From Promethearchaeota archaeon (GTDB taxonomy: Archaea; Asgardarchaeota; Lokiarchaeia; Sigyniarchaeales; SOKP01): a stretch of DNA of 27,364 nucleotides. The stretch spans positions 1-27,364 of the forward strand of contig JABCSY010000054.1 in NCBI GenBank assembly GCA_018238625.1, written 5' to 3'. The notes beneath the pieces were generated by a model. It worked only from the letters and a program-made list of their open reading frames with translations. It was not told the DNA's origin and did no database searches. The position numbers and the translations under genes are program-made. This document shows, piece by piece, positions 3,172 through 25,711 of this stretch; position 1 is the first letter of the stretch; each line of letters begins with the position of its first letter.

Positions 3172-6100
3172 TCATTTTAACTTCCAATTTTTTTTATTTT
3201 TTATAGTAGAGACAACAATACTATTTTTGCGCTCTAACTCTTTTAATTTTATTTGTAAGAAGCGAGCATCCATCATTTCTTTTATTTTCATTTTAAAAAT
3301 TAAAGAAGTAATCGGTTGCCATTCATCAGATAAAGCGTCCAGTATTTTCTCTGTTGTAATTATCGGCAATTCGATTTGAGTAGGTTCAGGTTTAGGCTCT
3401 GGAGCACGAACTATAGGTTTCTTTATAGCGATAGGTTGAGTCGGCTTTTCACTCCCGACTAACCGCAATTGTTTTCTTTTTTCTGTTACAACGCTTGTAA
3501 CGACAGGTTTTAGTTTAATGGGCTCTTCTCTTTCCTTTACTGAAGGCGATATTACTTCTGGCTTTCCTTTTGTATAAAATTCTTGAATTATTTTAATAAT
3601 TTCTGATTTTCGCACCGTTGAAGATTTGGCTATTAAGATATCATTTTCTATGCAATATTCTTTGAGTTCATTAACGGTCCAGTTCCTAAGGGTTCTTTCA
3701 GAAAGAAATTCTTTTCTTGGTTCTGCCTTCTTGGGGATATGTTCTTTCTTATCAATTGTTTTCTCCCATTCAACGACTATTTTCTTCTGTTTTTCTTTTT
3801 CAATTTCTATCTTTTTAATTATTGGCTCAATCTCTTTAGAAATGCTAGGTATTTTTTTAACTCCAATAGCATCTTTCATTAAGGTTTCTAATTCCGTTCC
3901 TGAAATTTTATCTTTGTATTTTCCATCGCCCTGCTTTACGATGTTAGTAAGGCTTTGGACGAATAATGGAATGTATCTTTCAATTAAACCAGCTCTTTTT
4001 TCGATTTTTCGAATATTCGCTTTTCTGTTAAGATATATTCTCAACCGTCTTCCAATGGCTTCGAGACAATATTTAATTTCTTTTAGAAGTTCGTCGTCGT
4101 CAGCCAGAGCATTTTTACTCTGGCTCTTAAACATCAAATGAACATATGGACCAGAGATATTTATTAATAACTTTATTGGGCCTTTAGGCAAATTATTATC
4201 ATATGTTTCTAATTTATAATTCTTCCAATTAACTGATTGAACTGCTTTCGTAATCGCACAATCCGCAGAATCCCTTAATTTTGGCGTTCTATTAATAAAT
4301 CTTGATAGCACATCCCTAGAACGCTTAGGCGTATCAAGTTTTTTAGGATCATTGCAATAGGCCAAAACAGCTTCAACAGCATAAGCTAAACCCTTTCCGC
4401 TTGTTGGAGCTCTTGTTTCAGCAGAAATAAAATCATCGTCCTTGGTGTAACTTTCAATAAAATATTCGAATATTTCTTGATATGAATCTTTTTGCACTTC
4501 TTCGGACGATATAAAATTTTTTTGGATTGTTTGTCTAAATTTTTCCGGTTCGACTGAGCGATCTTTAATATCAACACTGGCTAACATCTTTGAGTTAAAA
4601 ATCTTAAGCTCTTCGGAATTTATAACGATATTTTCTAAAGAATCGTCCTTTCCGGAAGAATGGTTTTTAGCGCGCTCTTTTATTATTTCATCCCGCAATA
4701 CTTCAATTGATTCTTTTATGTCATCTGTGGGATCTTCAAAATCATCAATATTAGCAGATATTCTTAGCCCAATTTCTTTTATTAAAGTATTTTCTAATAC
4801 AACATCACCTACAGGAATTGCTGTATCTGTTGGAGGGGCCATGTATTTGACTGATTTGAACGCGTGAAATAGAGAATTGAATTGCACATTAGTTAACTCA
4901 GAGGGTTTAGCTTTTGAAATTTGAACTTCTTTTACTAAATCTTCAAATTCGCTCCTATTTTTTAATTTTTTAACTTCTACTAACCCTATAGAAGTATTGA
5001 AAATGGTATTTAAACCACTTTTTATTTTTTCTTTATTTTGTGAATTGCTCTCTATTTGTTTTAATAAGCTATTAATCTCTTTTTCGATTTTTTTTATATC
5101 TTTTTTCGTTTCAGATTTATCAATACGACGTCTATGTTTTGTTATTTCTCTATATATCTTTTCTAAATCTTTATTATATTGGTTATATGTTTTCATAAGT
5201 TCCCAATATTTAGCCTTCAACTCTTCAGAATCAACTTGATAAATGATTAATTTATCTCTTGGTTTCGTAGAGCGCCCAAATATTCTTTTTTCAAATTTAA
5301 GGAAATTAATAGTATCAGTATTTTTCTCTAATTTGTTTACAAATCCACTACTAAGAATTAATAAAGATAAATTATCCTGTAAATTCTTTTCTGCGATCTT
5401 CAGAATTTGTTTAGCTAATTTGGAACTAATTCTTACAAAATTATCTTGTAAAAAAGCTGAAATCGTGAGATTTTCTGATTTTATTAAAAGATCTTGTAAA
5501 TCACCAATGTTAGTAGATAAGGGGTGTGGTTTTGCATATTTTGGTTGTCTAGGAAAATTCGAAACTACCCTTCTATAAATCCATTCTTCACCATAAGGAT
5601 CAATAAAAATAATAGTTACATGCGGATTCATGAGCGAAGTTTCTTTTATATAGGTATCCACATAACCTCTAACATATTTTACGTTTAAGTAATTCAACTT
5701 AATATATGTCCCGTGTAGGAATGGGCTGTCAACTTCCGTTGGGCGCACTAAATATCGTTTTTCATTTTTTGAAGTAGTAAAAAATTCTGACACAGTACCA
5801 TAAATAGTGTCTTTAGACTTTGAAACTGCAACAATTGGTTTGCCAGTCGTGTTTTGGGCGTCACTAAACGCACTTGGAGAGCCAAATCCTTGACTTCCGC
5901 GAGTTTGCTTTAATTCTAGACTTTTTGAAGAAGCTAGATATTTTCCAAACTTACCTAGATCTCTTTTGGACATTCCAATACCATTATCAAACATTTCAAA
6001 AGTGTAACTCATAACATTTTTTTGCGATAACTCAGAAGTTAAAAAGGCGGCGGCTTCAGATTCGCGGAGTCGGATTATTACAATTGGTTCGATATCGATG

Positions 6101-6588
6101 ATTGGTTCTACAGGTTTGATAATTTCATTCATGTCTTCAATAATCCTTTTTACTTCTTCCTCAACCTCTATTTCCTCTTTATCGATAATTTCTCCCGATT
6201 CTTCTTCTTTATCTCTGTCAACATCTGACAAAACTTCAGCCTCAGAAGATATTGTAGGAATTATACCAACTTCTTGCATTAATGCATATTTAGACGCGTT
6301 ATTTAATGGTCGTTCCACCTCATCTTTTTTTGCTTCTTGAAGGATGGATAAATTTTCTAAAGATAATTCTTGATCGAGAGAGAATTGGATTTTTGAATCC
6401 TTATCTTTTATTTCATTCCATTGGAACTCTTCAATAGCATCTAAACTGTTGTCTAAAAATTCTGAAACGTATTGCATGTGTTTATAATAACCCATTGAGA
6501 AGCCTACAAGTTGTCCTCTCTTCCTCATAAACCCTGCAATTGTGCCTTGCTTTATCCTACCTTCATCCTCAGAGGAAATTTGAATCAC
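3172..6588 (-). CDS. top6B: DNA topoisomerase VI subunit B, enlarged (1138 aa)
   Basis: GHKL motifs EFLDNSLDA, FDNGIG, QTRGSQGFG and HGT; KPHP linker; transducer motifs RFINRTP and FKSQSK. Carries several insertions and a long C-terminal extension. Confidence 0.92.
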   Translation of the reverse strand: MIQISSEDEGRIKQGTIAGFMRKRGQLVGFSMGYYKHMQYVSEFLDNSLDAIEEFQWNEIKDKDSKIQFSLDQELSLENLSILQEAKKDEVERPLNNASKYALMQEVGIIPTISSEAEVLSDVDRDKEEESGEIIDKEEIEVEEEVKRIIEDMNEIIKPVEPIIDIEPIVIIRLRESEAAAFLTSELSQKNVMSYTFEMFDNGIGMSKRDLGKFGKYLASSKSLELKQTRGSQGFGSPSAFSDAQNTTGKPIVAVSKSKDTIYGTVSEFFTTSKNEKRYLVRPTEVDSPFLHGTYIKLNYLNVKYVRGYVDTYIKETSLMNPHVTIIFIDPYGEEWIYRRVVSNFPRQPKYAKPHPLSTNIGDLQDLLIKSENLTISAFLQDNFVRISSKLAKQILKIAEKNLQDNLSLLILSSGFVNKLEKNTDTINFLKFEKRIFGRSTKPRDKLIIYQVDSEELKAKYWELMKTYNQYNKDLEKIYREITKHRRRIDKSETKKDIKKIEKEINSLLKQIESNSQNKEKIKSGLNTIFNTSIGLVEVKKLKNRSEFEDLVKEVQISKAKPSELTNVQFNSLFHAFKSVKYMAPPTDTAIPVGDVVLENTLIKEIGLRISANIDDFEDPTDDIKESIEVLRDEIIKERAKNHSSGKDDSLENIVINSEELKIFNSKMLASVDIKDRSVEPEKFRQTIQKNFISSEEVQKDSYQEIFEYFIESYTKDDDFISAETRAPTSGKGLAYAVEAVLAYCNDPKKLDTPKRSRDVLSRFINRTPKLRDSADCAITKAVQSVNWKNYKLETYDNNLPKGPIKLLINISGPYVHLMFKSQSKNALADDDELLKEIKYCLEAIGRRLRIYLNRKANIRKIEKRAGLIERYIPLFVQSLTNIVKQGDGKYKDKISGTELETLMKDAIGVKKIPSISKEIEPIIKKIEIEKEKQKKIVVEWEKTIDKKEHIPKKAEPRKEFLSERTLRNWTVNELKEYCIENDILIAKSSTVRKSEIIKIIQEFYTKGKPEVISPSVKEREEPIKLKPVVTSVVTEKRKQLRLVGSEKPTQPIAIKKPIVRAPEPKPEPTQIELPIITTEKILDALSDEWQPITSLIFKMKIKEMMDARFLQIKLKELERKNSIVVSTIKNKKNWKLK

Positions 6589-8073: not shown

Positions 8074-8230
8074 TTCTTTCAACAAAATAGAGTTTTATTT
8101 AGTATACTTAATAAAGTTATATTTTCAATTTAAAAATATTGCAATCCTTTAACTCTTTTTGGATATTGGAAGATAAATTTTTGATTTATGTCGTTAAATT
8201 GGAAAGCTTTAACTAACGGCGGTAATAATA

Positions 8231-8277
8231 TTTTAAAAAAGAATAGAAATTATGTGATGTTCTTATAAAAAACATCA
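8231..8277 (-). terminator. Hairpin plus pyrimidine/U-rich tract after mini-ORF 1
   Basis: Inverted repeat TGATGTT (8255-8261)/AACATCA (8271-8277), then minus-strand TTTCTATTCTTTTTT. Confidence 0.5.
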
Positions 8278-8279
8278 TT

Positions 8280-8309
8280 TTATGGGAGGTGACCGTCCTG
8301 ACCAGGCAT
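8280..8309 (-). CDS. Putative 9-aa micropeptide MPGQDGHLP
   Basis: ATG CCT GGT CAG GAC GGT CAC CTC CCA TAA, preceded by AGTGAGAAAAA and followed by a hairpin and U-rich tract. Confidence 0.65.
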   Translation of the reverse strand: MPGQDGHLP

Positions 8310-8450
8310 TTTTTCTCACTTTGTTTGTTATGTGAATTGTTTTTAACTAATTTTTTTTTTAATTTGAAACCGAATTGAAACGACATAGATTACATTTTGT
8401 TAAATTGTAAGATCTATCTAATTATAATAAAATATTTTTTTAACTACTTA

Positions 8451-8496
8451 TTTTAAAAAAGAAAGGAAAATATATGATGTTTTTGTATAAAACATC
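8451..8496 (-). terminator. Hairpin plus U-rich tract after mini-ORF 2
   Basis: Inverted repeat GATGTTTT (8476-8483)/AAAACATC (8489-8496), then minus-strand TTTTCCTTTCTTTTTT. Confidence 0.55.
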
Positions 8497-8499
8497 CAT

Positions 8500-8529
8500 T
8501 TATGGTATGATATATGGTTGACCAGGCAT
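8500..8529 (-). CDS. Putative 9-aa micropeptide MPGQPYIIP
   Basis: ATG CCT GGT CAA CCA TAT ATC ATA CCA TAA, preceded by AGTGTGAAAAAA and followed by a hairpin and U-rich tract. Confidence 0.65.
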   Translation of the reverse strand: MPGQPYIIP

Positions 8530-8652
8530 TTTTTTCACACTATTTGTTTAATGAAATGAATTTAATATCTCCTTCTTTTAAATTTGAAACCAAATATACT
8601 TAGTTTTTTCAAAACCAATTTATTAATTAACAATATTTATTTAAACTACTTA

Positions 8653-8698
8653 TTTTAAAAAAGAAAGGAAAATACATGATGTTCTTACAATAAACATC
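8653..8698 (-). terminator. Hairpin plus U-rich tract after mini-ORF 3
   Basis: Inverted repeat GATGTT (8678-8683)/AACATC (8693-8698), then minus-strand TTTTCCTTTCTTTTTT. Confidence 0.5.
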
Positions 8699-8701
8699 TA
8701 A

Positions 8702-8731
8702 TTATGGCCCTATACCGTCATGACCAGGCAT
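8702..8731 (-). CDS. Putative 9-aa micropeptide MPGHDGIGP
   Basis: ATG CCT GGT CAT GAC GGT ATA GGG CCA TAA, preceded by AGTGAGAAAAA and followed by a hairpin and U-rich tract. Confidence 0.65.
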   Translation of the reverse strand: MPGHDGIGP

Positions 8732-9032
8732 TTTTTCTCACTCTATTTATTAATTGAAATGTATTTGATTTATTCTTTTTTTAATTTAAGGCTAAAATGG
8801 ATGATTTATGTTTAATTTTTTCAAGCCTATTTATTAATTTGATAAAATTTATTTAAACTCCTAAAAAAGTGAAAAGTGATTAGCGTAAAATAACCAACTC
8901 ATGCTTTTAGGGATTTTTAAATATAATTTTTTATCATTGTAGGTCTAAACAATTCTAAATACTTTACATCATCAAGTTTGGGGCTAAATGCTCCAGTGAA
9001 AAATGAAAGAAATTTTAAGAAGTATTCTTTTT

Positions 9033-10235
9033 TTATATTAAATCTGAAGGTAAATGTGGATTAGTAATTAAGTTTTGAAAGTTTTTAACTGAAGGAAGCT
9101 TTCCATACTTGTATTTTATGAGATTGCTTCCAAGGTTATACATAAAAGCGTTTTTTGAATAAACTGGGTTAGAGATTTTTTTTAGTTGAATTTTTATGGT
9201 TTCTTTACTAACAATTTCAAAATTTGTTCCATATCGTATTAATTGCTCGTCGTTATATTTATCAATAAGCGCATGATATGCAAAATTATACCAAAAAAGG
9301 GTTATTTTTCCTTTTACTTTGTTTTGTGCCATCATCATTTCAAGAGAATCTTCGTTTGATGAATCTGGACACAATTCTCGTAAACTAATTTCTACTGCTT
9401 CCCGATTTGAAAAGAGCATTTTTAATGCTAATTCTGCGATCCCTTCTGAGAGTATTAATTTAGGGCTATGTAGCAGTAGTATTGAGTGTTCAAATTGATT
9501 TAACTCGCGATATAACACTCTTTCTTTGATAGCAAATTCTGTATGATGGCCAGGATATCCCTCATGTGCGGCAGAAGACAAAAGTCCAGTCCAATAAATG
9601 TTGTAATTCGGATTAACCTCTATTCGGGAGCAAAAATTACCCACATACCAATTGTAATAAGACCATTTTATTTCATCATTATTTTTGACTAATTCTAACA
9701 CAATTCGTTCTTTTTGAGGTAATAAGTTGACAAATAACTTTTTAGTTCGCTCTCTCGTGATGTTGAGAGCTTTTTTATATAATTCAAATACTTTACCCTC
9801 AGGAACAGTTCGTCGTACTCTTAAATCGTTCATTCGCTTTTCTAAACTTCCAGAATCACCATACGCTGCGCTAAACTCTTCTTTTAAGTTATCTAATTCA
9901 GATTCTTTAACTGGTTGTAAGACTACATCATATAACTTTGAGAATTGCTCCTTTATAGGAATATCGATATCGCTTAGGATTTCGATGGAAGTTCTCATCG
10001 ATATTAATGTTTTTTCTAAGTATCGCTCGCGTTTTTTATCGTAACCTTGTTTAAACAAATCTTTTTGTAGAGCTTTGCAATCACTTAAAAGCTTGTTTGG
10101 TGAAGTTATAACCTCATTGTCAACGATTTTACGTAATTTTTTAGGACCAATATAAAAATCTACATATCCCTTATTGTGTTTGTCTATGCGAAGTGTTAAA
10201 TTCAGAAAACGTCTTCCATATTCAGATAATTTCAT
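9033..10235 (-). CDS. DUF885-like putative zinc metallopeptidase (gluzincin-like)
   Basis: HEGYPGHH motif (nt ~9543-9566) with a downstream EGIAE candidate third-ligand motif and a late Y-x-x-G, matching the pattern of DUF885-type proteins. No signal peptide is visible. Confidence 0.65.
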   Translation of the reverse strand: MKLSEYGRRFLNLTLRIDKHNKGYVDFYIGPKKLRKIVDNEVITSPNKLLSDCKALQKDLFKQGYDKKRERYLEKTLISMRTSIEILSDIDIPIKEQFSKLYDVVLQPVKESELDNLKEEFSAAYGDSGSLEKRMNDLRVRRTVPEGKVFELYKKALNITRERTKKLFVNLLPQKERIVLELVKNNDEIKWSYYNWYVGNFCSRIEVNPNYNIYWTGLLSSAAHEGYPGHHTEFAIKERVLYRELNQFEHSILLLHSPKLILSEGIAELALKMLFSNREAVEISLRELCPDSSNEDSLEMMMAQNKVKGKITLFWYNFAYHALIDKYNDEQLIRYGTNFEIVSKETIKIQLKKISNPVYSKNAFMYNLGSNLIKYKYGKLPSVKNFQNLITNPHLPSDLI

Positions 10236-10408
10236 AGTTACACCCGGTATTTTCGTCTTTGAGCGCGTAAATTAAATATTTTATTTTAAAGATAATCGTC
10301 TACTATTGAGATAATAATTATAATTGATTATATTAAATTATTGGTTTATTCGGGTCACGATAGGATTAATTGTGATTTAAAATTTGAAGCGTAACAGAAA
10401 TAATTAAT

Positions 10409-12769
10409 TTATTCCTCAACTATATTTAAATTTAGTTTTAATTTTGAGGTATAAAACATTATTTTATTAAAAATGTCTTGATCAATCTCTAACCTTAAGC
10501 CTAAATTCAATATATTCGAAAATTGGTTTCCGTAATAGGTTTTAAACAACTTGGATACGTTATATATTGCGTTTTTTTCAGAAGATTTAAGTATTTTAGA
10601 TTTTTCAAATTCTTCTTTTCTTATCTTTAAGATTTCGCTGGAATATTTAACAAATTGCGTATGACGCATTTCTTTTAGATTGAAAATCTTTGTACCTCCA
10701 AGCTCTCTTACCACGAGTATATTTTTTACGACTGAATGAATTTTCTCGAGCAGTTTGGTTCTAAATTCATCTAAATTACTTACTTCGCGTAATAACTCTT
10801 GAATTATTTCAGAGAATGGTAAATCTAATCCAGCTAATTCAGTCGTTAAATTTAATAATATTAAAATTTGATCCGTTTTCTCTTCAGAATTAGATTTTAA
10901 TTCTTGGTAAATAAATTCTCTTTCTTTATTTATAAAATCGAATAAGAATTTTCTGAAAGCTTTTACAAATTGACGATAATTTGGGACAAACAGTTTATTT
11001 GGGTTATTTAATATGATTTCATAAGCTTTAAAAGGACTAATCTTTTTATCGAGAACCGCTTTGATAAGAGATAAAGGGTAATACCCTTCAATAAATACCA
11101 TGCCCTTCGAAATACTATTAATTGCGTCTTTAAACGAACATTTCGCGATTATATTGATTCTTTTAACGATATTTCCTTCAATTTTAACCGGTGTTTTTTG
11201 ACAGTAAACTAAATCGAATGGTTTCAAGTCGTGAAAAAGAGAGTTGTTTTGATCTGGGATAACAATTTGGGCGCCGTACGCATTTACTAAACTGCCTTGT
11301 CTTGGCTTACTAGCTAAATCCCATTCGATTATCATAAGGTCGTTAATATTAGAATGATCTTGGTCAATGTCGTAATTGTATTCTATAGGTTTACTGATTA
11401 GCGAAAAGACATCTATAGAATTAATTTCATAACTATTTTCTTCTCCCCAGAATTGTTTTTTATAATAGAAAATATCTGGGAAGTTGTTTAAATCGTCTAA
11501 GAACAATTCTTTAATTATTAAATAGTTAACTCCAATTTCCGAAGATTTAATGGTAGATTCGTTTATTCCATAAAAGCCTATGTGTTTTATAACGTAATTG
11601 TAAGCGGGGTTTTCGAGATTCTCTTTATCGTGATTAACGATGTAGGTGTTTCTCTTTTTTCTAAAGTCAACTTTAGATTTTTTGATTTTATATTTTTCCT
11701 TAAGTAGATTGAGAAAGGCAAATTTCTTTAAATATACTTTCTTTTCTAATTCTTTTATTTCGCTTTTATATGCCTTATATTCGTCATAGTACGCGTCTTT
11801 TTGAATTTGAAAAACTTCAAAATGCCCCTTCATTAGCTTTAGTTTATCTATTACGCAGAAATTCTCTATTTCGCTTTTAAAATACTTTACAATTTCGCTT
11901 TTAAACGATTCAAAAGCCTTCAAAGGTATTAAATCTTTGAAAAGCGGATTAAGGTTAACGAGAGTTTCGTATTTTTTTTTTATAAAAAAAGCTGAAAAAT
12001 ACATTTCATTAAAATCGTTTGAATTAGCCATTTTTGCTAATTTTTTAAGCAAAGACGAAACAAAAGATTCGTTTTGAAATTTATACACATCTAATAATCT
12101 ATCAAAAGATTCTATAATTCTAAGTATTTCATAAAAAGCGTATTTTGAAACCGAATTTAGAAACAATTTAACACCTTTTTCTATGTAGTGATTGTATTTG
12201 AGAAGATAGGGTCCTAATTCGTTATCATAGGCAGACAGCAGAAATTCAAAAAATTCAATATACAAATTATTTTCAATCGCCGTTTTCAAATACCTTTCAA
12301 TAATCGATTCGCACTCGTGTTGATTAATAATCGCTTTATTTAAATAATTTAGTCCATCAACACAATTTTCACATTCAAAACAAGCATTAGCCAATTTCAA
12401 ATAGTTTTTGCTCTTCTTTTTGGAACCAAAGTCTTCAGAAGTTAAAAAAAAATCGTCAATATTGTTGATAATTTTTAAAGAAATCGACGGATTTATTATC
12501 GTTAAAAGTCTTATTAGATGAATGCATATCTTATCATCTCTTTCGCTGTGTATTAAAAAAGTAGGACAATCGTGAAATATTTCATTTTTTTTCTCGTTAA
12601 TAACTAGGTGGAATTCCCGGTCATTATCTAAAATGATTGCTCTTATCTTTATTGGATCTTCTTTCAATGAAATTATATTAATTTTATTTTTCTGGAACTC
12701 AACTGATTTCTTATATATCTCAATTCCATATTTCTCAATTATTAATTCTGATAAATTATTTTTTGTCAT
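10409..12769 (-). CDS. Large hypothetical protein with N-terminal SWIM-like Zn finger
   Basis: Beta-hairpin followed by HDCPTF...KICIHL (H/C-x-C...C-x-H), then a helical region. Starts 4 nt downstream of the VWA gene. Confidence 0.6.
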   Translation of the reverse strand: MTKNNLSELIIEKYGIEIYKKSVEFQKNKINIISLKEDPIKIRAIILDNDREFHLVINEKKNEIFHDCPTFLIHSERDDKICIHLIRLLTIINPSISLKIINNIDDFFLTSEDFGSKKKSKNYLKLANACFECENCVDGLNYLNKAIINQHECESIIERYLKTAIENNLYIEFFEFLLSAYDNELGPYLLKYNHYIEKGVKLFLNSVSKYAFYEILRIIESFDRLLDVYKFQNESFVSSLLKKLAKMANSNDFNEMYFSAFFIKKKYETLVNLNPLFKDLIPLKAFESFKSEIVKYFKSEIENFCVIDKLKLMKGHFEVFQIQKDAYYDEYKAYKSEIKELEKKVYLKKFAFLNLLKEKYKIKKSKVDFRKKRNTYIVNHDKENLENPAYNYVIKHIGFYGINESTIKSSEIGVNYLIIKELFLDDLNNFPDIFYYKKQFWGEENSYEINSIDVFSLISKPIEYNYDIDQDHSNINDLMIIEWDLASKPRQGSLVNAYGAQIVIPDQNNSLFHDLKPFDLVYCQKTPVKIEGNIVKRINIIAKCSFKDAINSISKGMVFIEGYYPLSLIKAVLDKKISPFKAYEIILNNPNKLFVPNYRQFVKAFRKFLFDFINKEREFIYQELKSNSEEKTDQILILLNLTTELAGLDLPFSEIIQELLREVSNLDEFRTKLLEKIHSVVKNILVVRELGGTKIFNLKEMRHTQFVKYSSEILKIRKEEFEKSKILKSSEKNAIYNVSKLFKTYYGNQFSNILNLGLRLEIDQDIFNKIMFYTSKLKLNLNIVEE

Positions 12770-12773
12770 TCTT

Positions 12774-15287
12774 CTAAAATCTCGATTTTATAATATCAGA
12801 AATTAATTTTGGGAAGTCGTTCCAATCTTTTATAGTTAATAATTGTCCTCCTGCGATTTTAACCATTTTTTTTGCTTCTTTTAAATTAAAGGAGGATTCT
12901 GGACAGACTAAGATAAAATCAATTCCTAAAGAGCGGAAAATTCTTAACGTTTCAATAGATTGCTGAAGGTCGTATATTTCAGCATCAGTAAATAATACAT
13001 TCAGCTTTTCACGGGAGCTTGATTTTTCTTTAAATTGTTTTTTTGCCCATTCTAAGGCACTTTGAAGCCTTGTACCACCTTTAGCTGAAACAGAGAGCAA
13101 CTCATCGGCTAATTTTTCTAAATCAACTTTTTTAGATAATTCCTTTAAAACATGCGTATCAGACTCGAAAAATGCAATAGCAATCTCATCTTTTCTCATC
13201 CCATATACTAACATAGTCACACATATTGCCATATAAGCTAGTTTTTCTCCCGTCATCGAACCACTGATATCAAGTTCAAAGCATAACGAGCGTAGTCCTT
13301 TCGCGGTCTCATAAACAAAAAAATCATCGTAATTAAGATGGTCTAATTTTTTACCCTTTTCCAGAAGATGGAAAATTGTTTCCTCCAAGTCTATATTTTC
13401 AAAGTCATCTCCTATTGTGTAGGGTCTTACTATGTTAACAGGTGTAGGGCCGGTCGTTGCACTGCCTAAACGAGCCCTTGAATAATATATTCCTAACTCA
13501 ATTAACATTTTTTTTGCTAATTCCTTAACCTTTAATTTAACTTGTTCTGGTAGATTATTTCTATGAATAAACCATTGTTTAAGGAGGTTTTCACCAGTAC
13601 CCGCGGATAAACACGCAATTAGTTTATCTTGCGCTTCTTTGCCCCCAATTTGCTGAGCACCTTTTAAAGCCTCATTCAGATTAAAATGACCAATTGCGCC
13701 TAAAGCATCCCTATTATCGGAAGCTAACGCACTGCTTAAAAGCTCTCTGATTCTCTCTTTATTCAGTTGGTCTTTAATTTGATTCATTAAATTGTTAATT
13801 CGCTGAAAATCTGCTACTTTCTTTTCAATCGTTTTTTTTAATAATTGATAGTTAGGTTCTATTAATTCGTATATTTCCTCTTCGGGCATTTCAAGTTTTT
13901 TTCCAATTCTTTTAATATCTTCTGCTTCAGGATTTAATCCGATCTTTCTTAAGAATTCTGTTGCGTTTCTTAATTGATCAGGCGTTTCACAAGCCTCTAG
14001 TGTTTGAGAAGTTAATTCGGGTAATTTCTGAGATATTTTTTGTCCACAGTGCATGTTTGGGCAGCTATTCATTAATTGTTGCATTTGATGAGAAAGCGAT
14101 TTAAATGCTTCAAACTTAATATTTTGACTATTTGCTTCATCGATCGCATTTTTCATAGCTTGATTAAATAGCGAATTCCAAGATTTATTAGCAAAGGCAT
14201 TTTTTGTCAACATTTCTAACGATAGATTCAATTGTTTCTTTTGCTTTTGCGGATTTTGCATTTGCCCATTTAATTTATTTAGCAGTTCTTCTCTTAAATT
14301 AGTACCAAAATATTGATCTAACGAGTCTGCAAGGTTAAAATTATGCTCAAATGAAGATTGGTTTAGCGAATTATTCAAAACTTTATCTTGATCAAACTTA
14401 GGAGTTTCGCCTAAAGTTTTTGCGGCATTAAATAATTGATCTAAATTATTTAGTTGGTTCTGAAGTTGATTTTTAATGTTTTGGATTTGATCTTTTATGC
14501 TTTGATTGTCCGAGGTCTCATTAATAAATTTTATAGATTTTAAAAGATCATCTAATTTGTTTGAATTAATCAGTTTTGATAAATCCTCAGAAATATTTTG
14601 ATTATCGAGAGCTTTACTTGCGAGTTTTTCCCATTCCCTTAAAGAATTTTGCTGGATTAAGTCGTTTAAACCTAAATTCGAACCAGCCCTTAAATCGTCA
14701 GGACTCAACGAATTTATTTTTTGTTCTAGCCTTTTTTGGGCTTCTTGAATTAGTTTTTCTAAGGAAGATATCTCTTCTTTATACAATTCCGAATCGTCGT
14801 TAAAAAAATTTAATGCGGATTTATATGGCTCTTCCTCCCTATTCGAATTTAATTCTTTGAGAAATTCCTCTAATTTTTGAATCTCATCTGTATCAATTGA
14901 TTTTGTCGCCTCGATTTCGTCAATAATCTCTTGAAGTTGATCTAATTCAGACTTCATCTCGGATTCTACAAGGTCTTCAATAGATTTATCAACGGCATCT
15001 TCGCTCTGAAAAAACGAGTCAATAATATCTTTTTTGTAATTTGGAAAGAGAATTTTAAAAGCAATGTCTTTTGCTAATTCCTGATTGTCCGGAAACGAAG
15101 TTACGGTACTTATTTCTATGTAATCGTTGGGAGTCACAAAACCCTTTCGATAATACCTCGATAAAATTAACTTTGGAATTGATAAAACTTGACGTGATGA
15201 CGGAATTTGGATAATGTCAGCATGAGACCTCATTTTTCTAATGAAATCTACAGCAAATTCGCAAGGATTTTCAGGAAAAACTGCCAT
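12774..15287 (-). CDS. VWA-domain protein (CoxE/MoxR-partner-like)
   Basis: C-terminal MIDAS motif DISGS, with GGT and LFTD; pre-VWA motif IDLEETI; long Q/N/E-rich helical stalk. Confidence 0.85.
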   Translation of the reverse strand: MAVFPENPCEFAVDFIRKMRSHADIIQIPSSRQVLSIPKLILSRYYRKGFVTPNDYIEISTVTSFPDNQELAKDIAFKILFPNYKKDIIDSFFQSEDAVDKSIEDLVESEMKSELDQLQEIIDEIEATKSIDTDEIQKLEEFLKELNSNREEEPYKSALNFFNDDSELYKEEISSLEKLIQEAQKRLEQKINSLSPDDLRAGSNLGLNDLIQQNSLREWEKLASKALDNQNISEDLSKLINSNKLDDLLKSIKFINETSDNQSIKDQIQNIKNQLQNQLNNLDQLFNAAKTLGETPKFDQDKVLNNSLNQSSFEHNFNLADSLDQYFGTNLREELLNKLNGQMQNPQKQKKQLNLSLEMLTKNAFANKSWNSLFNQAMKNAIDEANSQNIKFEAFKSLSHQMQQLMNSCPNMHCGQKISQKLPELTSQTLEACETPDQLRNATEFLRKIGLNPEAEDIKRIGKKLEMPEEEIYELIEPNYQLLKKTIEKKVADFQRINNLMNQIKDQLNKERIRELLSSALASDNRDALGAIGHFNLNEALKGAQQIGGKEAQDKLIACLSAGTGENLLKQWFIHRNNLPEQVKLKVKELAKKMLIELGIYYSRARLGSATTGPTPVNIVRPYTIGDDFENIDLEETIFHLLEKGKKLDHLNYDDFFVYETAKGLRSLCFELDISGSMTGEKLAYMAICVTMLVYGMRKDEIAIAFFESDTHVLKELSKKVDLEKLADELLSVSAKGGTRLQSALEWAKKQFKEKSSSREKLNVLFTDAEIYDLQQSIETLRIFRSLGIDFILVCPESSFNLKEAKKMVKIAGGQLLTIKDWNDFPKLISDIIKSRF

Positions 15288-15305
15288 AAAATAACTTTTT
15301 ACCCC

Positions 15306-16247
15306 CTACGCACCTAAAGTTTTATGAATAATACTTTCAATAATATTTTCAACTTTTGTACCAGGCTTTGGTTTCATACTTCCTAGTAGAACGTGACGAG
15401 TGATCTCTGAAAGATATTCGTAAGTAGATGTTTTTTCTTTTATTTTTCCTTCTTTTTCTAAAGATCGTCTTCGAGCCAATAGCTTTGCTATCGCAATTCC
15501 GGCTCGAATTGACGCTGGTACTTCAATATCTATTTTATTCTTTCTCGTTTCGTTTATTATTGAATAAATTAATTCTAATTCAGACTCTTCGATAACAAAA
15601 TGTTCAGGCAAATTTATTCTTATAATCTCAAGCTCAGTTGCTTTATCGGGATATGTTAATTTAATCCAGATTTTAATCCTATCCTTTAAAGCCTCAGATA
15701 GCCGATGGGTTCCCGAAAGTTCTTCCGGATTCATAGCAGAAATAAAGAAGAAATCATTGTTAGCTTTTATTCGACCCAAGTGCGGAATGTTAATCGATTC
15801 TTCCTCTAAAGGTTCTAATAAAGTATTTTGCGAGTATTCAGTAGCTCGATTTATTTCATTAGCTAAAAAAGTTCCACCTTCTAGCATTGCGCTCAAAAGC
15901 GGGCCGGGATTAAAAGCTTCTAGCACAAATCCCTTTTTTAGGGTAATAGCAGGATCGAAACTCCCTATAAAATGCGAAGGTTTTATGCTTTCGTCCATTG
16001 TGAGCCAGAAAAAGCTCTTATTTTTCTTTTCTTTAGCTCTTAAACTAGCAAAATATCTACACAAAATTGTTTTCCCTACTCCAGGCGGCCCAACAAGCGC
16101 TGGAAACAATCCTGTTGCCTCTGCATCTCTAAGCAATTCCAGTGCTTTACCATATTGTCCTGATAAAACAATATCAATTGGTTCTTGAGATATATCTTTT
16201 ATAAGTTGTTGCTGAAATAACTCCTCGAATCTTTCTTTATTAATCAT
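15306..16247 (-). CDS. MoxR-family AAA+ ATPase
   Basis: Walker A GPPGVGKT, GPLLSAM, Walker B-like FLANEINR, QNTLLEPLEE, sensor I AMNP and arginine finger LSEALKDR. Confidence 0.9.
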   Translation of the reverse strand: MINKERFEELFQQQLIKDISQEPIDIVLSGQYGKALELLRDAEATGLFPALVGPPGVGKTILCRYFASLRAKEKKNKSFFWLTMDESIKPSHFIGSFDPAITLKKGFVLEAFNPGPLLSAMLEGGTFLANEINRATEYSQNTLLEPLEEESINIPHLGRIKANNDFFFISAMNPEELSGTHRLSEALKDRIKIWIKLTYPDKATELEIIRINLPEHFVIEESELELIYSIINETRKNKIDIEVPASIRAGIAIAKLLARRRSLEKEGKIKEKTSTYEYLSEITRHVLLGSMKPKPGTKVENIIESIIHKTLGA

Positions 16248-16374
16248 TTTATTTTCTCTGATTAAAGACGACTATTCAAAGTCTTTCTTTTTGTAAATAA
16301 TAAGTATTTGGTAATTTTTAACTTTAAATATAATAAGATAAAAGTATAAAAAATATTCTGATAAAGTATCAAAA

Positions 16375-16420
16375 TTTTAAAAAAGAAAGGAAATTATATG
16401 ATACTCTTAGAAAGAGCAAC
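16375..16420 (-). terminator. Hairpin plus U-rich tract after mini-ORF 4
   Basis: CTCTT (16404-16408)/AAGAG (16412-16416) core stem, extendable with a G-U pair on the minus strand, then TTTCCTTTCTTTTTT. Confidence 0.45.
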
Positions 16421-16423
16421 AAT

Positions 16424-16453
16424 TTATGGTACAAGACCGTTTTGACCAGGCAT
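16424..16453 (-). CDS. Putative 9-aa micropeptide MPGQNGLVP (solo copy of the repeat family)
   Basis: ATG CCT GGT CAA AAC GGT CTT GTA CCA TAA, preceded by GAGTGATTAAA. Has the same downstream hairpin position and TTTCCTTTCTTTTTT tract as the 8.2-8.9 kb copies. Confidence 0.65.
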   Translation of the reverse strand: MPGQNGLVP

Positions 16454-16654
16454 TTTAATCACTCGATTCATTAATTGAAAAAATTTAGCTTATTATTAGA
16501 ATTTAAAATGATTATTTAAACTGCGAAAATAATTTTGAGGATTTTTTAAATAATAACTCATAACAACTTTTATTTAGTTTTAAATTATAATAAAAATTAA
16601 AGTAATGATAATTTAATTAATATCAAATAAAAATTACAAATTTTAGGAATAACA

Positions 16655-19132: not shown

Positions 19133-19204
19133 GGGCCTGTAGATCAGTCGCAGATCGCTTGCTTCGCATGTAAGAGGGCACGGGTTCAATTCCCGTCAGG
19201 TCCA
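19133..19204 (+). tRNA. tRNA-Ala(CGC)
   Basis: Cloverleaf: acceptor GGGCCTG/CAGGTCC with G3:U70, D-stem GATC/GATC, anticodon stem CTTGC/GTAAG with CGC at 19165-19167, T-arm ACGGG-TTCAATT-CCCGT and discriminator A. CCA is not encoded. Confidence 0.93.
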
Positions 19205-23624: not shown

Positions 23625-24629
23625 TTATGTGAGCGTTAATCTTGGGTCGAGAGCGTCTCTTAAACCATCTCCCACTAACATAAATCCAAGTACAGTAATT
23701 AATATCATTAAACCAGGATAGAGTGGCGCCCAAGGAGCATCATATAAGTTTTCCCTTGCAAGACTTATATCATTTCCCCATTCTACAAATGTTGGATCGC
23801 CAAATCCTAAAAATGCTAATCCCGCCAAACCTAAAATAAATCCTCCTATAGCGAAAGTAACTGAAATTATTACAGGTTGTATAACGTTTGGTAATATATG
23901 CTTGAACATTATCCTCCAGTTATTCGCACCAGCAACTTTTGCGGCTTTTACATAGGGTAGTTCCTTAGCTTGTAACACGTTGCCTCTGATCAATCTGGAA
24001 TAACCGGGGATTCCTAAAAATGCATAAATAAACATAATAACTTGTATTTTTTTTCCAAAGATACCTACAAATACTAATGCAAGGATAAGTCCTGGAAAAG
24101 CAAGAAAAACATCTGCTATTCTCATGATAACTGAATCTATCCATCCCCCATAGTATGCAGCAATAACCCCCAGAAATACGCCGCCAATAACATTCATAGC
24201 AATAGCAGGAAGGGCTACCGTCAATGAGGAACGCGCACCAAATATAATTCTTGCTAAAACATCACGTCCTAGTTGTGTAGTTCCCAATAAGTGTTCTGGT
24301 GAGGGCGGAGCAAATGGAAGAAAAAGGTATCCCGTTGCTTCTGCAAATGTATAGGGAGAAAGCCAATGGGGAAAAACAGCCATAGTAACCAAGCAAAATA
24401 CAATAAATAAACCTAAAAGTGTTAATGCTGACTTAAGTTTTCTTATAAATTTTCTTTGACTTACTTGTTTTTCATATTCACGTTCTTTAAATGTCAATTC
24501 TTCTATAGTTGATGCTGGAACTATAAGAAATTTAAGATTTCTTATGAAAAATTCGAAAATATTTTTTACAACATTCTCTTTTTTCTCTTCTTTCTCAACT
24601 TCTATTTGATAAGTTTGATCACTTTCCAT
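23625..24629 (-). CDS. dppC: Peptide/nickel ABC transporter permease (DppC/OppC family)
   Basis: HLLGTTQLGRDVLARIIFGARSSL, EAA loop YVKAAKVAGA..HILPN and GDGLRDALDPR. Confidence 0.9.
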   Translation of the reverse strand: MESDQTYQIEVEKEEKKENVVKNIFEFFIRNLKFLIVPASTIEELTFKEREYEKQVSQRKFIRKLKSALTLLGLFIVFCLVTMAVFPHWLSPYTFAEATGYLFLPFAPPSPEHLLGTTQLGRDVLARIIFGARSSLTVALPAIAMNVIGGVFLGVIAAYYGGWIDSVIMRIADVFLAFPGLILALVFVGIFGKKIQVIMFIYAFLGIPGYSRLIRGNVLQAKELPYVKAAKVAGANNWRIMFKHILPNVIQPVIISVTFAIGGFILGLAGLAFLGFGDPTFVEWGNDISLARENLYDAPWAPLYPGLMILITVLGFMLVGDGLRDALDPRLTLT

Positions 24630-24682
24630 ACTTTTTCACATCCTACTTCTTATTTTTTATTTATTTAAATATGAAATTTTTA

Positions 24683-25711
24683 TTAATATCTTATTCTTGG
24701 ATCTAGAATACCGTAAGCTATATCAGTTATAAGTGTAGTTGCGACAAATATTAATGCCATCATAAATACGACACCGTTTAGTACCCAATAATCGCTTTTT
24801 TCAATCGCATCTACTAACGTTAAACCAATTCCATATATTCCAAAAGTAGTTTCCGTTAAAACTGCTCCTGTTAATAAACTTGCAAAATTTAATCCAATTA
24901 CGGTTATTGTTGGAATAAGAGAATTTTTTAATGCGTGAGTATTGATTACATCTCTCTCTTTACACCCTTTTGCTCTAGCTGTTCTCACATAATCTTGTTC
25001 CAATACTTCTAACATGCTTGAACGAGATTGTCTGACTATAGAAGCAAGAGTAACAAAAGATAAACAAAATACAGGCATTACCATGTGAATTAGATAATCT
25101 CCCACTAAATAAAAATATCCTCCTAGTATTGAGTCAATTAATATAAATCCCGTTATAGTTGGAGGATATGGATATTGTACTGACTTAATACCTACAGTAG
25201 GAAAGATATCAAGCTTATAACCTAAGAAAAATTGCATTAACATACCTAAAAAGAATATTGGAAATGCAACGCCTATTAATGCCATCCCCCTGAAAACAGT
25301 ATCTTTGATTTTATTTCTATTAGTAGCTGAAATCACTCCAACTTTAATTCCTATAAAAGAAGCGATAATCATTGAATATAGAGCAAGATCTATAGTTCTA
25401 GGAAGGCGTCTTCCTATTAAATCTATTACTTGCGATCCTGTAGCAACGGAGTAAGATTCACCCCAGTTACCAGTAAATAAATCTAAAATATATCTAAAGT
25501 ATTGGAGAATTATAGGCAGATCTAATCCCAATTCATGACGTTTTGCTGCAATTACAGCTGGATTTGGGTGAGGTATGCCCTGTGATTGTAATAATGCTAA
25601 GACTGGATCACCTGGCATCATTCTAGATAGAAAAAAAGTTAGTGTCATAACACCAAATATTATAGGTATAATTGCAATTAATCTTCTTACAAGATACTTA
25701 GTTAGACTCAT
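24683..25711 (-). CDS. dppB: Peptide/nickel ABC transporter permease (DppB/OppB family)
   Basis: PGDP, LGLDLP..QY, EAA loop DYVRTARAKG..HALKNS and C-terminal LDPRIRY. Confidence 0.9.
   Translation of the reverse strand: MSLTKYLVRRLIAIIPIIFGVMTLTFFLSRMMPGDPVLALLQSQGIPHPNPAVIAAKRHELGLDLPIILQYFRYILDLFTGNWGESYSVATGSQVIDLIGRRLPRTIDLALYSMIIASFIGIKVGVISATNRNKIKDTVFRGMALIGVAFPIFFLGMLMQFFLGYKLDIFPTVGIKSVQYPYPPTITGFILIDSILGGYFYLVGDYLIHMVMPVFCLSFVTLASIVRQSRSSMLEVLEQDYVRTARAKGCKERDVINTHALKNSLIPTITVIGLNFASLLTGAVLTETTFGIYGIGLTLVDAIEKSDYWVLNGVVFMMALIFVATTLITDIAYGILDPRIRY

Follow-up and report, generated by a model that had tools for sequence, protein, structure and literature searches.

In the RRNPP systems (Rap-Phr, PlcR-PapR and AimR-AimP) of Bacillota and their phages, the peptides come from secreted pro-peptides of 20–60 amino acids (aa) and the receptors are non-catalytic TPR proteins. 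In microcin C, a seven-codon gene, mccA, adjoins an enzyme gene and has its own ribosome-binding site and a hairpin/terminator after its open reading frame (ORF). DUF885-like proteins form a large superfamily with crystal structures whose function is, to our knowledge, not established, and we know of no member with a biochemical function or a co-encoded peptide. Here we analysed a 27,364-nucleotide (nt) stretch of DNA from a Promethearchaeota archaeon (GCA_018238625.1, contig JABCSY010000054.1; hereafter the window), in which four short repeat units, each with a nine-codon ORF, flank a block of four genes. The window is contig C164 of a 4.29-Mb metagenome-assembled genome (MAG) with 32% G+C, 201 contigs and 7.6% contamination. 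Our preferred reading, to which we give a probability of roughly 0.6, is that these mini-genes belong to one gene of the block, encoding a 400-aa DUF885-like protein with an HExxPGHH motif, and make up with it a lineage-specific, multi-copy, fast-turnover module of peptidase and nonapeptide in a single Promethearchaeota (Lokiarchaeia-type Asgard) genus.

The module resembles RRNPP systems in that the peptide gene lies immediately downstream of a gene for a largely helical cytoplasmic protein of ~400 aa, and in its many paralogous cassettes per genome, clade-specific peptides and patchy distribution. It differs from them in its archaeal host, in nine residues that would be translated directly without a signal sequence, and in a partner with a gluzincin-like rather than a TPR fold and an intact catalytic motif; neither a TPR receptor nor a secreted pro-peptide was found. 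With mccA the units share a length below ten codons, a ribosome-binding site of their own, a hairpin/terminator after the ORF and an adjoining enzyme gene. MccA, however, is bacterial, ends in Asn and is adenylated by MccB, and it has no peptidase partner, paralogous expansion or Pro caps. Nor do the units look like precursors of peptides that are made on the ribosome and then modified after translation (RiPPs), which have a leader and a core and are served by tailoring enzymes: the ORF has nine codons, and no shared tailoring enzyme stands beside the nine other modules of the genome. Since no component is homologous to RRNPP, microcin C or known toxin-antitoxin systems, these likenesses are analogies only. 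The HExxPGHH region and the predicted fold of the partner are like those of solved DUF885 proteins and of M32, M2 (ACE) and M3 oligopeptidases. Unlike the solved DUF885 proteins (~550 aa), it has ~400 aa and scores below the Pfam cut-off, and unlike its bacterial homologues, which have neither mini-ORFs nor conserved neighbours, it is accompanied by mini-ORFs. No description of a peptidase-nonapeptide pairing was found in the searchable literature, a body that leaves aside bioRxiv supplements and subscription journals.

Peptidase-like genes and their nonapeptide units

Across the source genome, nhmmer located 17 units on seven contigs and tblastn located ten paralogues of the HExxPGHH protein (64–83% identity). 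Every one of the ten paralogues is followed by one to three mini-ORFs on the same strand, the first of which starts 161–353 nt past the peptidase stop codon. Conversely, 16 of the 17 units lie 161–723 nt downstream of a peptidase stop, the sole exception being unit 4 of the window. The original prediction had suggested a peptide-centred system with either the peptidase or the MIDAS domain of the neighbouring VWA protein as partner; the ten-out-of-ten association, together with the relatives and metagenome contigs described below, upholds the peptidase half of that suggestion. Two further signals were set aside as evidence. Raised depth of DNA runs over positions 9038–10373 fits cross-mapping of paralogues, and joints between unit 1 and unit 4 on metagenome contigs (skips of ~8 kb, and backward joints of ~8.1–8.2 kb) have sides of only 43–57 letters at 90% likeness inside the repeat family and most likely come from other paralogous loci.

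The four units of the window form one repeat family, recovered as four copies of 137 nt in a repeat search and with nhmmer E values from 1.9e-32 to 9.2e-53. That this family stands at both ends of the four-gene block was already part of the original prediction, whose coordinates and order for the four mini-ORFs and four genes all hold. On the minus strand the order is unit 4, the MoxR gene, the VWA gene, a gene for a 786-aa protein, the gene for the 400-aa HEGYPGHH protein, and three tandem units encoding peptides 3, 2 and 1. A unit measures ~200–230 nt and consists, in order, of a TATA-like box, a conserved leader of ~90 nt, a Shine-Dalgarno (SD)-like element, the nine-codon ORF, a hairpin and a T-rich run.

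The unit for peptide 3 (8645–8866, minus strand, as are all four) has the TATA-like sequence TTTAAATA at 8850–8857, then the 5' leader, an SD-like GTGAG, the mini-ORF MPGHDGIGP (8702–8731, stop codon included), a hairpin at 8678–8698 and a T-rich run at 8657–8674. In the unit for peptide 2 (8440–8650) the same box lies at 8638–8645, the SD-like element is GTGTGA, and the mini-ORF MPGQPYIIP (8500–8529) is followed by a hairpin (8476–8496) and a T-rich run (8455–8475). The unit for peptide 1 (8215–8421) is without an exact upstream TTTAWAWA; it has an SD-like GTGAG, the mini-ORF MPGQDGHLP (8280–8309), a hairpin at 8256–8276 and a T-run at 8235–8240. The orphan unit for peptide 4 (16357–16578) has the TATA-like sequence GTTTAAATAA at ~16513–16520, an SD-like GAGTGA, the mini-ORF MPGQNGLVP (16424–16453), a hairpin at 16400–16420 and a T-rich run at 16379–16399.

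The same parts recur beyond the window. In 40 of 43 units, drawn from this genome and its relatives, a TTTAWAWA box of the TTTAAATA type lies 51–149 nt 5' of the ATG, usually directly behind the T-run of the preceding element. The letters of the SD-like element vary (GTGAG, GGTG, GGAG, GTGA, GGGA) and its spacing is constant. The hairpin begins 1–3 nt after the ORF and has up to 8 bp, with 92% of cells paired; four of eight pairs carry compensatory changes, and the covariation score was reached by none of 500 shuffles. Some relatives have an extra inner stem inserted in it. The T-rich run at the end of the unit finishes in T6. An Rfam scan of the window returned no match to the units at the gathering score and a sole match, to a tRNA, at 19133–19204. 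The layout appears to be that of an independent mini-gene with its own transcription and not that of a leader of the downstream gene, since the downstream gene can be convergent (L008; here and below, G, C and L numbers denote genomes, contigs and loci). Each mini-gene would thus be transcribed separately from its TATA-like box, translated from a Shine-Dalgarno site, stabilised by the hairpin after its stop and ended by an oligo-T terminator. We regard this anatomy of the module, that is the unit layout and its pairing with a peptidase gene, as very probably correctly described by the sequence comparisons.

The pairing extends to relatives. Among 150 other genomes of the phylum, only congeners of the source genome (G071, G113, G125) had the expanded (high-scoring) peptidase clade, and seven of twelve sampled congeners have no peptidase homologue at all. 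MPG-type mini-ORFs follow those expanded-clade genes that have downstream DNA in G071, G113, G125, G152, G161, G163, G168 and G171, one G113 copy being found by the covariance model only. This model, built on the unit core, matched 9 of 31 congeners and none of 69 genomes from 12 other genera of the family, and its matches coincide with the genomes holding the expanded peptidase clade. Mini-ORFs were also found behind the peptidase gene in two Promethearchaeota MAG loci of a species collection, a third locus ending at the gene, and, in metagenome contigs scanned independently, at all six archaeal loci whose sequence continues downstream. Bacterial-type metagenome loci (24–34% identity) gave chance matches to mini-ORFs only. 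The peptide sequence is conserved within peptidase clades and differs between clades. Distant peptidase subfamilies (37–50% identity) are accompanied by related mini-ORFs (MPVDGNIVP, MPHTDGIVP, MPSGNIIPE, MPHTFDIFP) and by two more on the opposite strand, convergent with the peptidase gene (MPHSPNTVP, MPHGPGGTVIP).

Several other observations concern these relatives. The near-identical peptidases of G071 and G157, first taken as a candidate transfer, are orthologues, since both occupy the same slot next to the 786-aa gene. An apparent second peptide family, a ten-codon ORF behind distant orthologues, was an artefact, being read out of frame within a radical-SAM gene. One Hodarchaeota MAG and three genomes of the window's family (L012, L103, L105, L106) have a radical-SAM gene with a CQHGCIYCY motif directly after the peptidase orthologue, an arrangement that may represent a second conserved partnership of the HExxPGHH family. 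On contig G113:C44 (L099 1779, plus strand), a complete unit encoding MPGHNQIFP lies ~190 nt upstream of a peptidase paralogue that has another unit downstream; the upstream unit is either left over from the end of a lost module next to it or belongs to a different arrangement. Among 57 ORFs beside bacterial homologues there was no conserved partner, the neighbours being heterogeneous.

The putative peptidase and possible roles of the peptides

The 400-aa protein (9033–10235, minus strand) carries HEGYPGHH at residues 224–231. It had no match above threshold in Pfam or NCBIfam; PF05960 (DUF885) scored 16.7 bits against a gathering cut-off of 32.4 (E 0.0061), and over the motif region only (residues 217–239). 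Of 32 aligned homologues, 14 match DUF885 at E ≤ 0.01, the best at 8.8e-6. Searches of PDB sequences, with the single protein and with a profile, returned nothing meaningful. An AlphaFold2 model from the 32-sequence alignment (pLDDT 93.4, pTM 0.92) found 3o0y_A as its best Foldseek match in the PDB (E 1.4e-5, probability 1.00, TMq 0.50), then the DUF885 structures 3u24 and 3iuk, and after the DUF885 entries M32 carboxypeptidases, ACE/ACE2, neurolysin and MATCAP, with M32, ACE and neurolysin at E 0.01–0.3. No substitution occurs at H224, E225, Y227, P228, G229, H230, H231, E249 or E264 across 32 archaeal and bacterial homologues and the ten paralogues. Neighbours of the protein in the Atlas are named 'putative DUF885 domain-containing protein', and one report places DUF885 in the Peptidase_MA clan (PMC12572635). 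On the strength of the model and motif, the protein is a putative DUF885-like zinc metallopeptidase with a gluzincin oligopeptidase fold. Among the peptidase paralogues dN/dS ranges from 0.15 to 0.45, which suggests that these genes are constrained, with the youngest pairs somewhat relaxed or diversifying.

M32, M2 and M3 enzymes have their active site in a closed channel that only short peptides can enter. By analogy with these families, the 400-aa protein may have the same closed access. With such a fold restricting the enzyme to short peptides, a peptide encoded beside it would be a dedicated ligand, and a functional pairing of peptidase and peptide is, in our view, probable from the genomic association. 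The initiator Met would be removed, because Pro occupies position 2, leaving an octapeptide with Pro at both ends. A Pro-capped octapeptide of this kind should resist general exopeptidases and could enter the channel of its partner enzyme. We tentatively propose that the peptide may be a dedicated substrate, recognised by its conserved (M)PG and Pro ends and carrying its payload in the variable middle. With the same reserve, the genus may hold a diversifying library of directly translated, Pro-capped nonapeptides, each with its own DUF885-like paralogue; peptides and enzymes would form a novel recognition system (signalling, kin discrimination or conflict) whose pairs co-diversify and swap chromosomal slots.

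The strongest competitor makes the peptide a substrate-like competitive inhibitor, or gatekeeper, of an enzyme that is freed when peptide synthesis stops, in the manner of a toxin-antitoxin or defence system. ACE-fold peptidases are classically inhibited by oligopeptides that end in Pro. The modules occur patchily and in multiple copies, with ten here and none in seven of the twelve congeners; close relatives hold different paralogue lineages in the same slot (flanks 93–98% identical, peptidase 70–73%); pseudogenised copies and relics exist; and the peptide genes have promoter-like boxes of their own, with several copies per enzyme. All of these would suit a gatekeeper. A closed-channel oligopeptidase, however, would make an unlikely toxin because it does not attack folded proteins, a property established for M32, M3 and M2 and expected here by extension. 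Pro-capped peptides should, moreover, be stable, which labile antitoxins are not, and a survey of the neighbours of the modules, made without a PADLOC scan, revealed no defence genes. Arrays of different peptides behind one enzyme also fit a substrate better than a gatekeeper. We think an inhibitory role possible and rather unlikely, somewhat behind the substrate proposal. Whether the peptide is a substrate or a gatekeeper, a role in signalling or conflict would suit modules that are patchy, multi-copy and quick to turn over.

Coding signal in the nine-codon frames

Forty distinct units, chosen without any filter on ORF length, were used for a stop-codon test. The first in-frame stop fell at codon 10 in 36 of them, at codon 11 in three and at codon 6 in one, an orphan copy. 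Over codons 4–8 there was one in-frame stop per 200 codons against 13.6 expected from shuffles, and none of 20000 shuffles had one or fewer; the other two frames contained 6 and 9 stops per 200 over the same stretch. Open frame and paired hairpin together mark the repeat as more than a chance likeness. All 37 nine-codon ORFs have Met1, Gly3 and Pro9, and 36 have Pro2; the consensus is M-P-G-[QHE]-x-[G/D/N]-x-x-P. Pro9 is encoded by CCA in 25 of these ORFs, CCT in 5, CCC in 5 and CCG in 2, and four codons are used for Gly3. The peptide MPGQAGAVP stands behind orthologous peptidase genes in three genomes with 2–4 synonymous and no non-synonymous differences, and the adjoining proteins have dN of 0.14–0.15 and dS of 0.90–0.96. 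Frame, length, start and stop are thus kept, change is synonymous and a ribosome-binding site is present, as for translated small ORFs. These comparative data support translation and suggest that the mini-ORFs are real nine-codon genes.

It could instead be that the units are non-coding, being a small RNA, a selfish repeat or a cis-acting 3' element in the mRNA of the peptidase, and that the frame is incidental or is translated merely for RNA control. Conservation of ATGCCTGGTCA and of the long leader at the nucleotide level would fit this, as would a hairpin conserved immediately behind the stop codon, where a terminating ribosome would melt it. Against it stand the deficit of stops in a frame of fixed length, the synonymous codon turnover at invariant Pro and Gly, the conservation of whole peptides with only synonymous changes, an SD sequence that varies while its function is retained, and the lack of an Rfam family match. 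A simple 3'-UTR role is excluded because convergent copies exist behind distant orthologues. We consider a purely non-coding unit improbable.

Several observations weigh against the pairing of translated nonapeptides with peptidase genes and must be set beside the evidence for it. ATGCCTGGT is nearly fixed in nucleotides within the genus (CCT in 33 of 37, GGT in 33 of 37), a fixity that could stem from gene conversion or from constraint at the RNA level. The sole RNA run with any window sequence, a metatranscriptome holding 7% of its words, left the units and the peptidase gene uncovered; its low-depth contigs covered only parts of the VWA gene. Two or three quite dissimilar peptides can stand behind a single enzyme gene, a point against strict one-to-one specificity, and some units are orphans (unit 4 here, one at G170:C75 and a decayed copy in G154). 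Other distant orthologues, one from Hodarchaeota included, have a radical-SAM gene next to them instead of a mini-ORF, and bacterial homologues (25–36% identity) have no mini-ORFs. The source genome, finally, is a MAG in 201 contigs with 7.6% contamination, and units often lie at contig ends.

The resident operon and its variable flanks

The three genes between unit 4 and the peptidase gene encode a MoxR-type AAA+ ATPase of 313 aa (15306–16247, minus strand; Walker A GPPGVGKT, AAA_5 E 3.5e-18, AAA_3 E 4.3e-13), a VWA protein of 837 aa (12774–15287, minus; C-terminal VWA domain, VWA_2 E 1.1e-10, MIDAS motif DISGS read directly) and the 786-aa protein (10409–12769, minus), which lies outside the peptide module. 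The MoxR gene has its own conserved upstream region, located downstream of unit 4. An AAA_5/AAA_3 ATPase with a Walker A motif thus adjoins a VWA protein with a MIDAS DxSxS, as in other MoxR/VWA pairs. By description only, the set can be likened to E. coli YehL/YehP/YehQ and RavA-ViaA, as a MoxR ATPase, a VWA protein with MIDAS and a SWIM-like protein are co-oriented here. Of the labels MoxR, VWA and SWIM in the original prediction, the first two are borne out by hidden Markov models (HMMs) and motifs. The third has no HMM support: the 786-aa protein gave no Pfam or NCBIfam match even at E 10, the SWIM zinc finger (PF04434, CxCxnCxH) included, and the label depends on a variant HDC-x15-CIH near the N-terminus, recognised by eye (HDC-x15-CPH in the G156 homologue).

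CoaBC is encoded next after the units on the minus strand, and a PFL-like gene diverges at the opposite side; topoisomerase VI, ScpB, CoaBC and a glycyl-radical enzyme are also encoded in the window. With a 16-kb DNA query, operon DNA was found in 29 of 30 other sampled genomes of the genus, down to ~70% identity, and the order topoisomerase VI, CoaBC, 786-aa protein, VWA, MoxR, PFL, tRNA, leucyl-tRNA synthetase is kept wherever contigs are long enough. In nine fetched loci the operon was intact in all nine and the peptidase gene adjoined the 786-aa gene in three (G161, G163, G157). Five of the nine (G160, G152, G154, G156, G121) contained no unit at nhmmer E ≤ 1e-3, and several genomes (for example G083, G099, G104, G121, G141) have the operon with neither peptidase nor units. 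G152, G154 and G156 carry modules elsewhere, and their slot beside the 786-aa gene is without one, being empty in G152, filled with other DNA in G154 and occupied by a PHP-like gene in G156.

These data bear on the proposal that the MoxR-VWA (MIDAS) machinery has the peptides as its ligands or substrates, the whole 8-kb block being one system. The genes adjoin and are co-oriented in the window, the module occupies the slot beside the 786-aa gene in G161, G163, G157, G071, G168 and G171, and a second module abuts MoxR in G168. In the source genome, however, nine of the ten modules have no MoxR, VWA or 786-aa neighbour: the 786-aa gene is single-copy by tblastn, MoxR/VWA paralogues on six other contigs carry no unit (0 of 6), and around the nine other modules lie 35 ORFs, housekeeping genes of unrelated kinds (among them RtcB, TGT, TYW2, L15e and QPRTase) with no MoxR or VWA. 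With the operon also unit-free in five of nine fetched loci, and modules elsewhere in G152, G154 and G156, the MIDAS domain finds no support as the peptide partner. The original prediction had named a cassette usually found without the mini-ORFs as the finding that would count against it, and for the MoxR-VWA-SWIM genes this is what the fetched loci revealed. We regard the one-system proposal as largely refuted. The MoxR-VWA-786aa genes are a resident, genus-wide operon and very probably a bystander, and the peptidase and peptide module is the variable, inserted part. Beside the RtcB gene, ~600 nt downstream of another peptidase-peptide module, lies an ORF (L001 6295–7683, plus strand) that combines an intein splicing domain with a C2H2 zinc finger.

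The least probable reading of all starts from an older four-unit array, into which the MoxR-VWA-SWIM-peptidase cassette was inserted or within which recombination mobilised it. This reading gains something from the recombination-prone nature of the units (a deletion junction inside a mini-ORF in G170, and unit numbers that vary in close relatives) but conflicts with the conserved coaBC-PFL position of the operon in those 29 of 30 genomes, unit-free ones included, with the lack of any empty site with contiguous units in the synteny comparison, and with the ready explanation of unit 4 by loss of a second peptidase gene.

That explanation comes from G168, which has a peptidase paralogue (67% identity) between PFL and MoxR and, behind it, a unit encoding MPGQNGLVP, the peptide of unit 4. 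Aligned with G168, the window is without the peptidase gene and keeps the whole unit; G170, G161 and G163 are without the peptidase gene and the 5' part of the unit to about codon 5, only a 3' remnant being left. The window and these three genomes represent two deletions with different boundaries. Unit 4 is a relic of a second module whose peptidase gene was lost. Because G168 has a full module at the site, the bracketing of the operon is best read as two modules in two slots, one decayed: the downstream slot holds a full module of peptidase and three units, the upstream slot the relic.

At the downstream slot, the flanks in G170 are 93–99% identical (protein), and all that follows the 786-aa gene of a unit is its final codon with the stop, the hairpin and the T-run; this genome lost peptidase and units through a deletion with its junction inside a mini-ORF. 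In G161 and G163 the flanks are 93–98% identical, the same-slot peptidase is only 70–73% identical and the peptides differ; in the tree their slot peptidases group with other paralogues of the source genome and not with the window's copy, and slot and paralogue lineage are therefore decoupled. Unit number differs between close relatives. Empty-site alignment revealed no target-site duplications or terminal repeats at module boundaries, and a short AAAATC-type direct repeat was seen by eye at both module boundaries in G168. Genome comparison has shown the peptidase-like gene and the predicted nonapeptide genes to be inherited, lost and swapped together. The slots beside the operon also carry other cargo, a 401-aa PHP-like protein in G156 (L116 3411–4616, plus strand) and a 280-aa Dam-like methyltransferase in G160 (L111 9404–10246, plus), and the two intergenic slots look like hot spots for variable genes.

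Further genes of the window lie outside the module and the operon. The topoisomerase VI B ORF (3172–6588, minus; 1138 aa) has HATPase_c_3 at residues 197–248 and the transducer only at 717–864, and the protein seems to have large insertions or extensions. The tRNA gene (19133–19204, plus; 62.8 bits in Rfam) lies between the PFL-like and leucyl-tRNA synthetase-like genes, a trio that is syntenic genus-wide. Two Opp/Dpp-type ABC permease genes (23625–25711, minus), with BPD_transp_1 and an N-terminal PF19300, stand 7 kb from the block.

For annotation, the locus warns that adjacency can mislead on function, the MoxR-VWA operon being in all likelihood a bystander. If the peptides are made, selection maintains nine-codon genes in archaea, of a size that gene callers miss, and if the library proposal is true they would rank with the smallest genes yet proposed in archaea. 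The pairing offers a concrete substrate or ligand hypothesis for DUF885-like proteins, and under the library proposal it would be the first functional handle on the superfamily. The locus also brings to light a fast-evolving, multi-copy module of putative enzyme and peptide in the archaeal lineage closest to eukaryotes, with a pattern typical of signalling or conflict systems.

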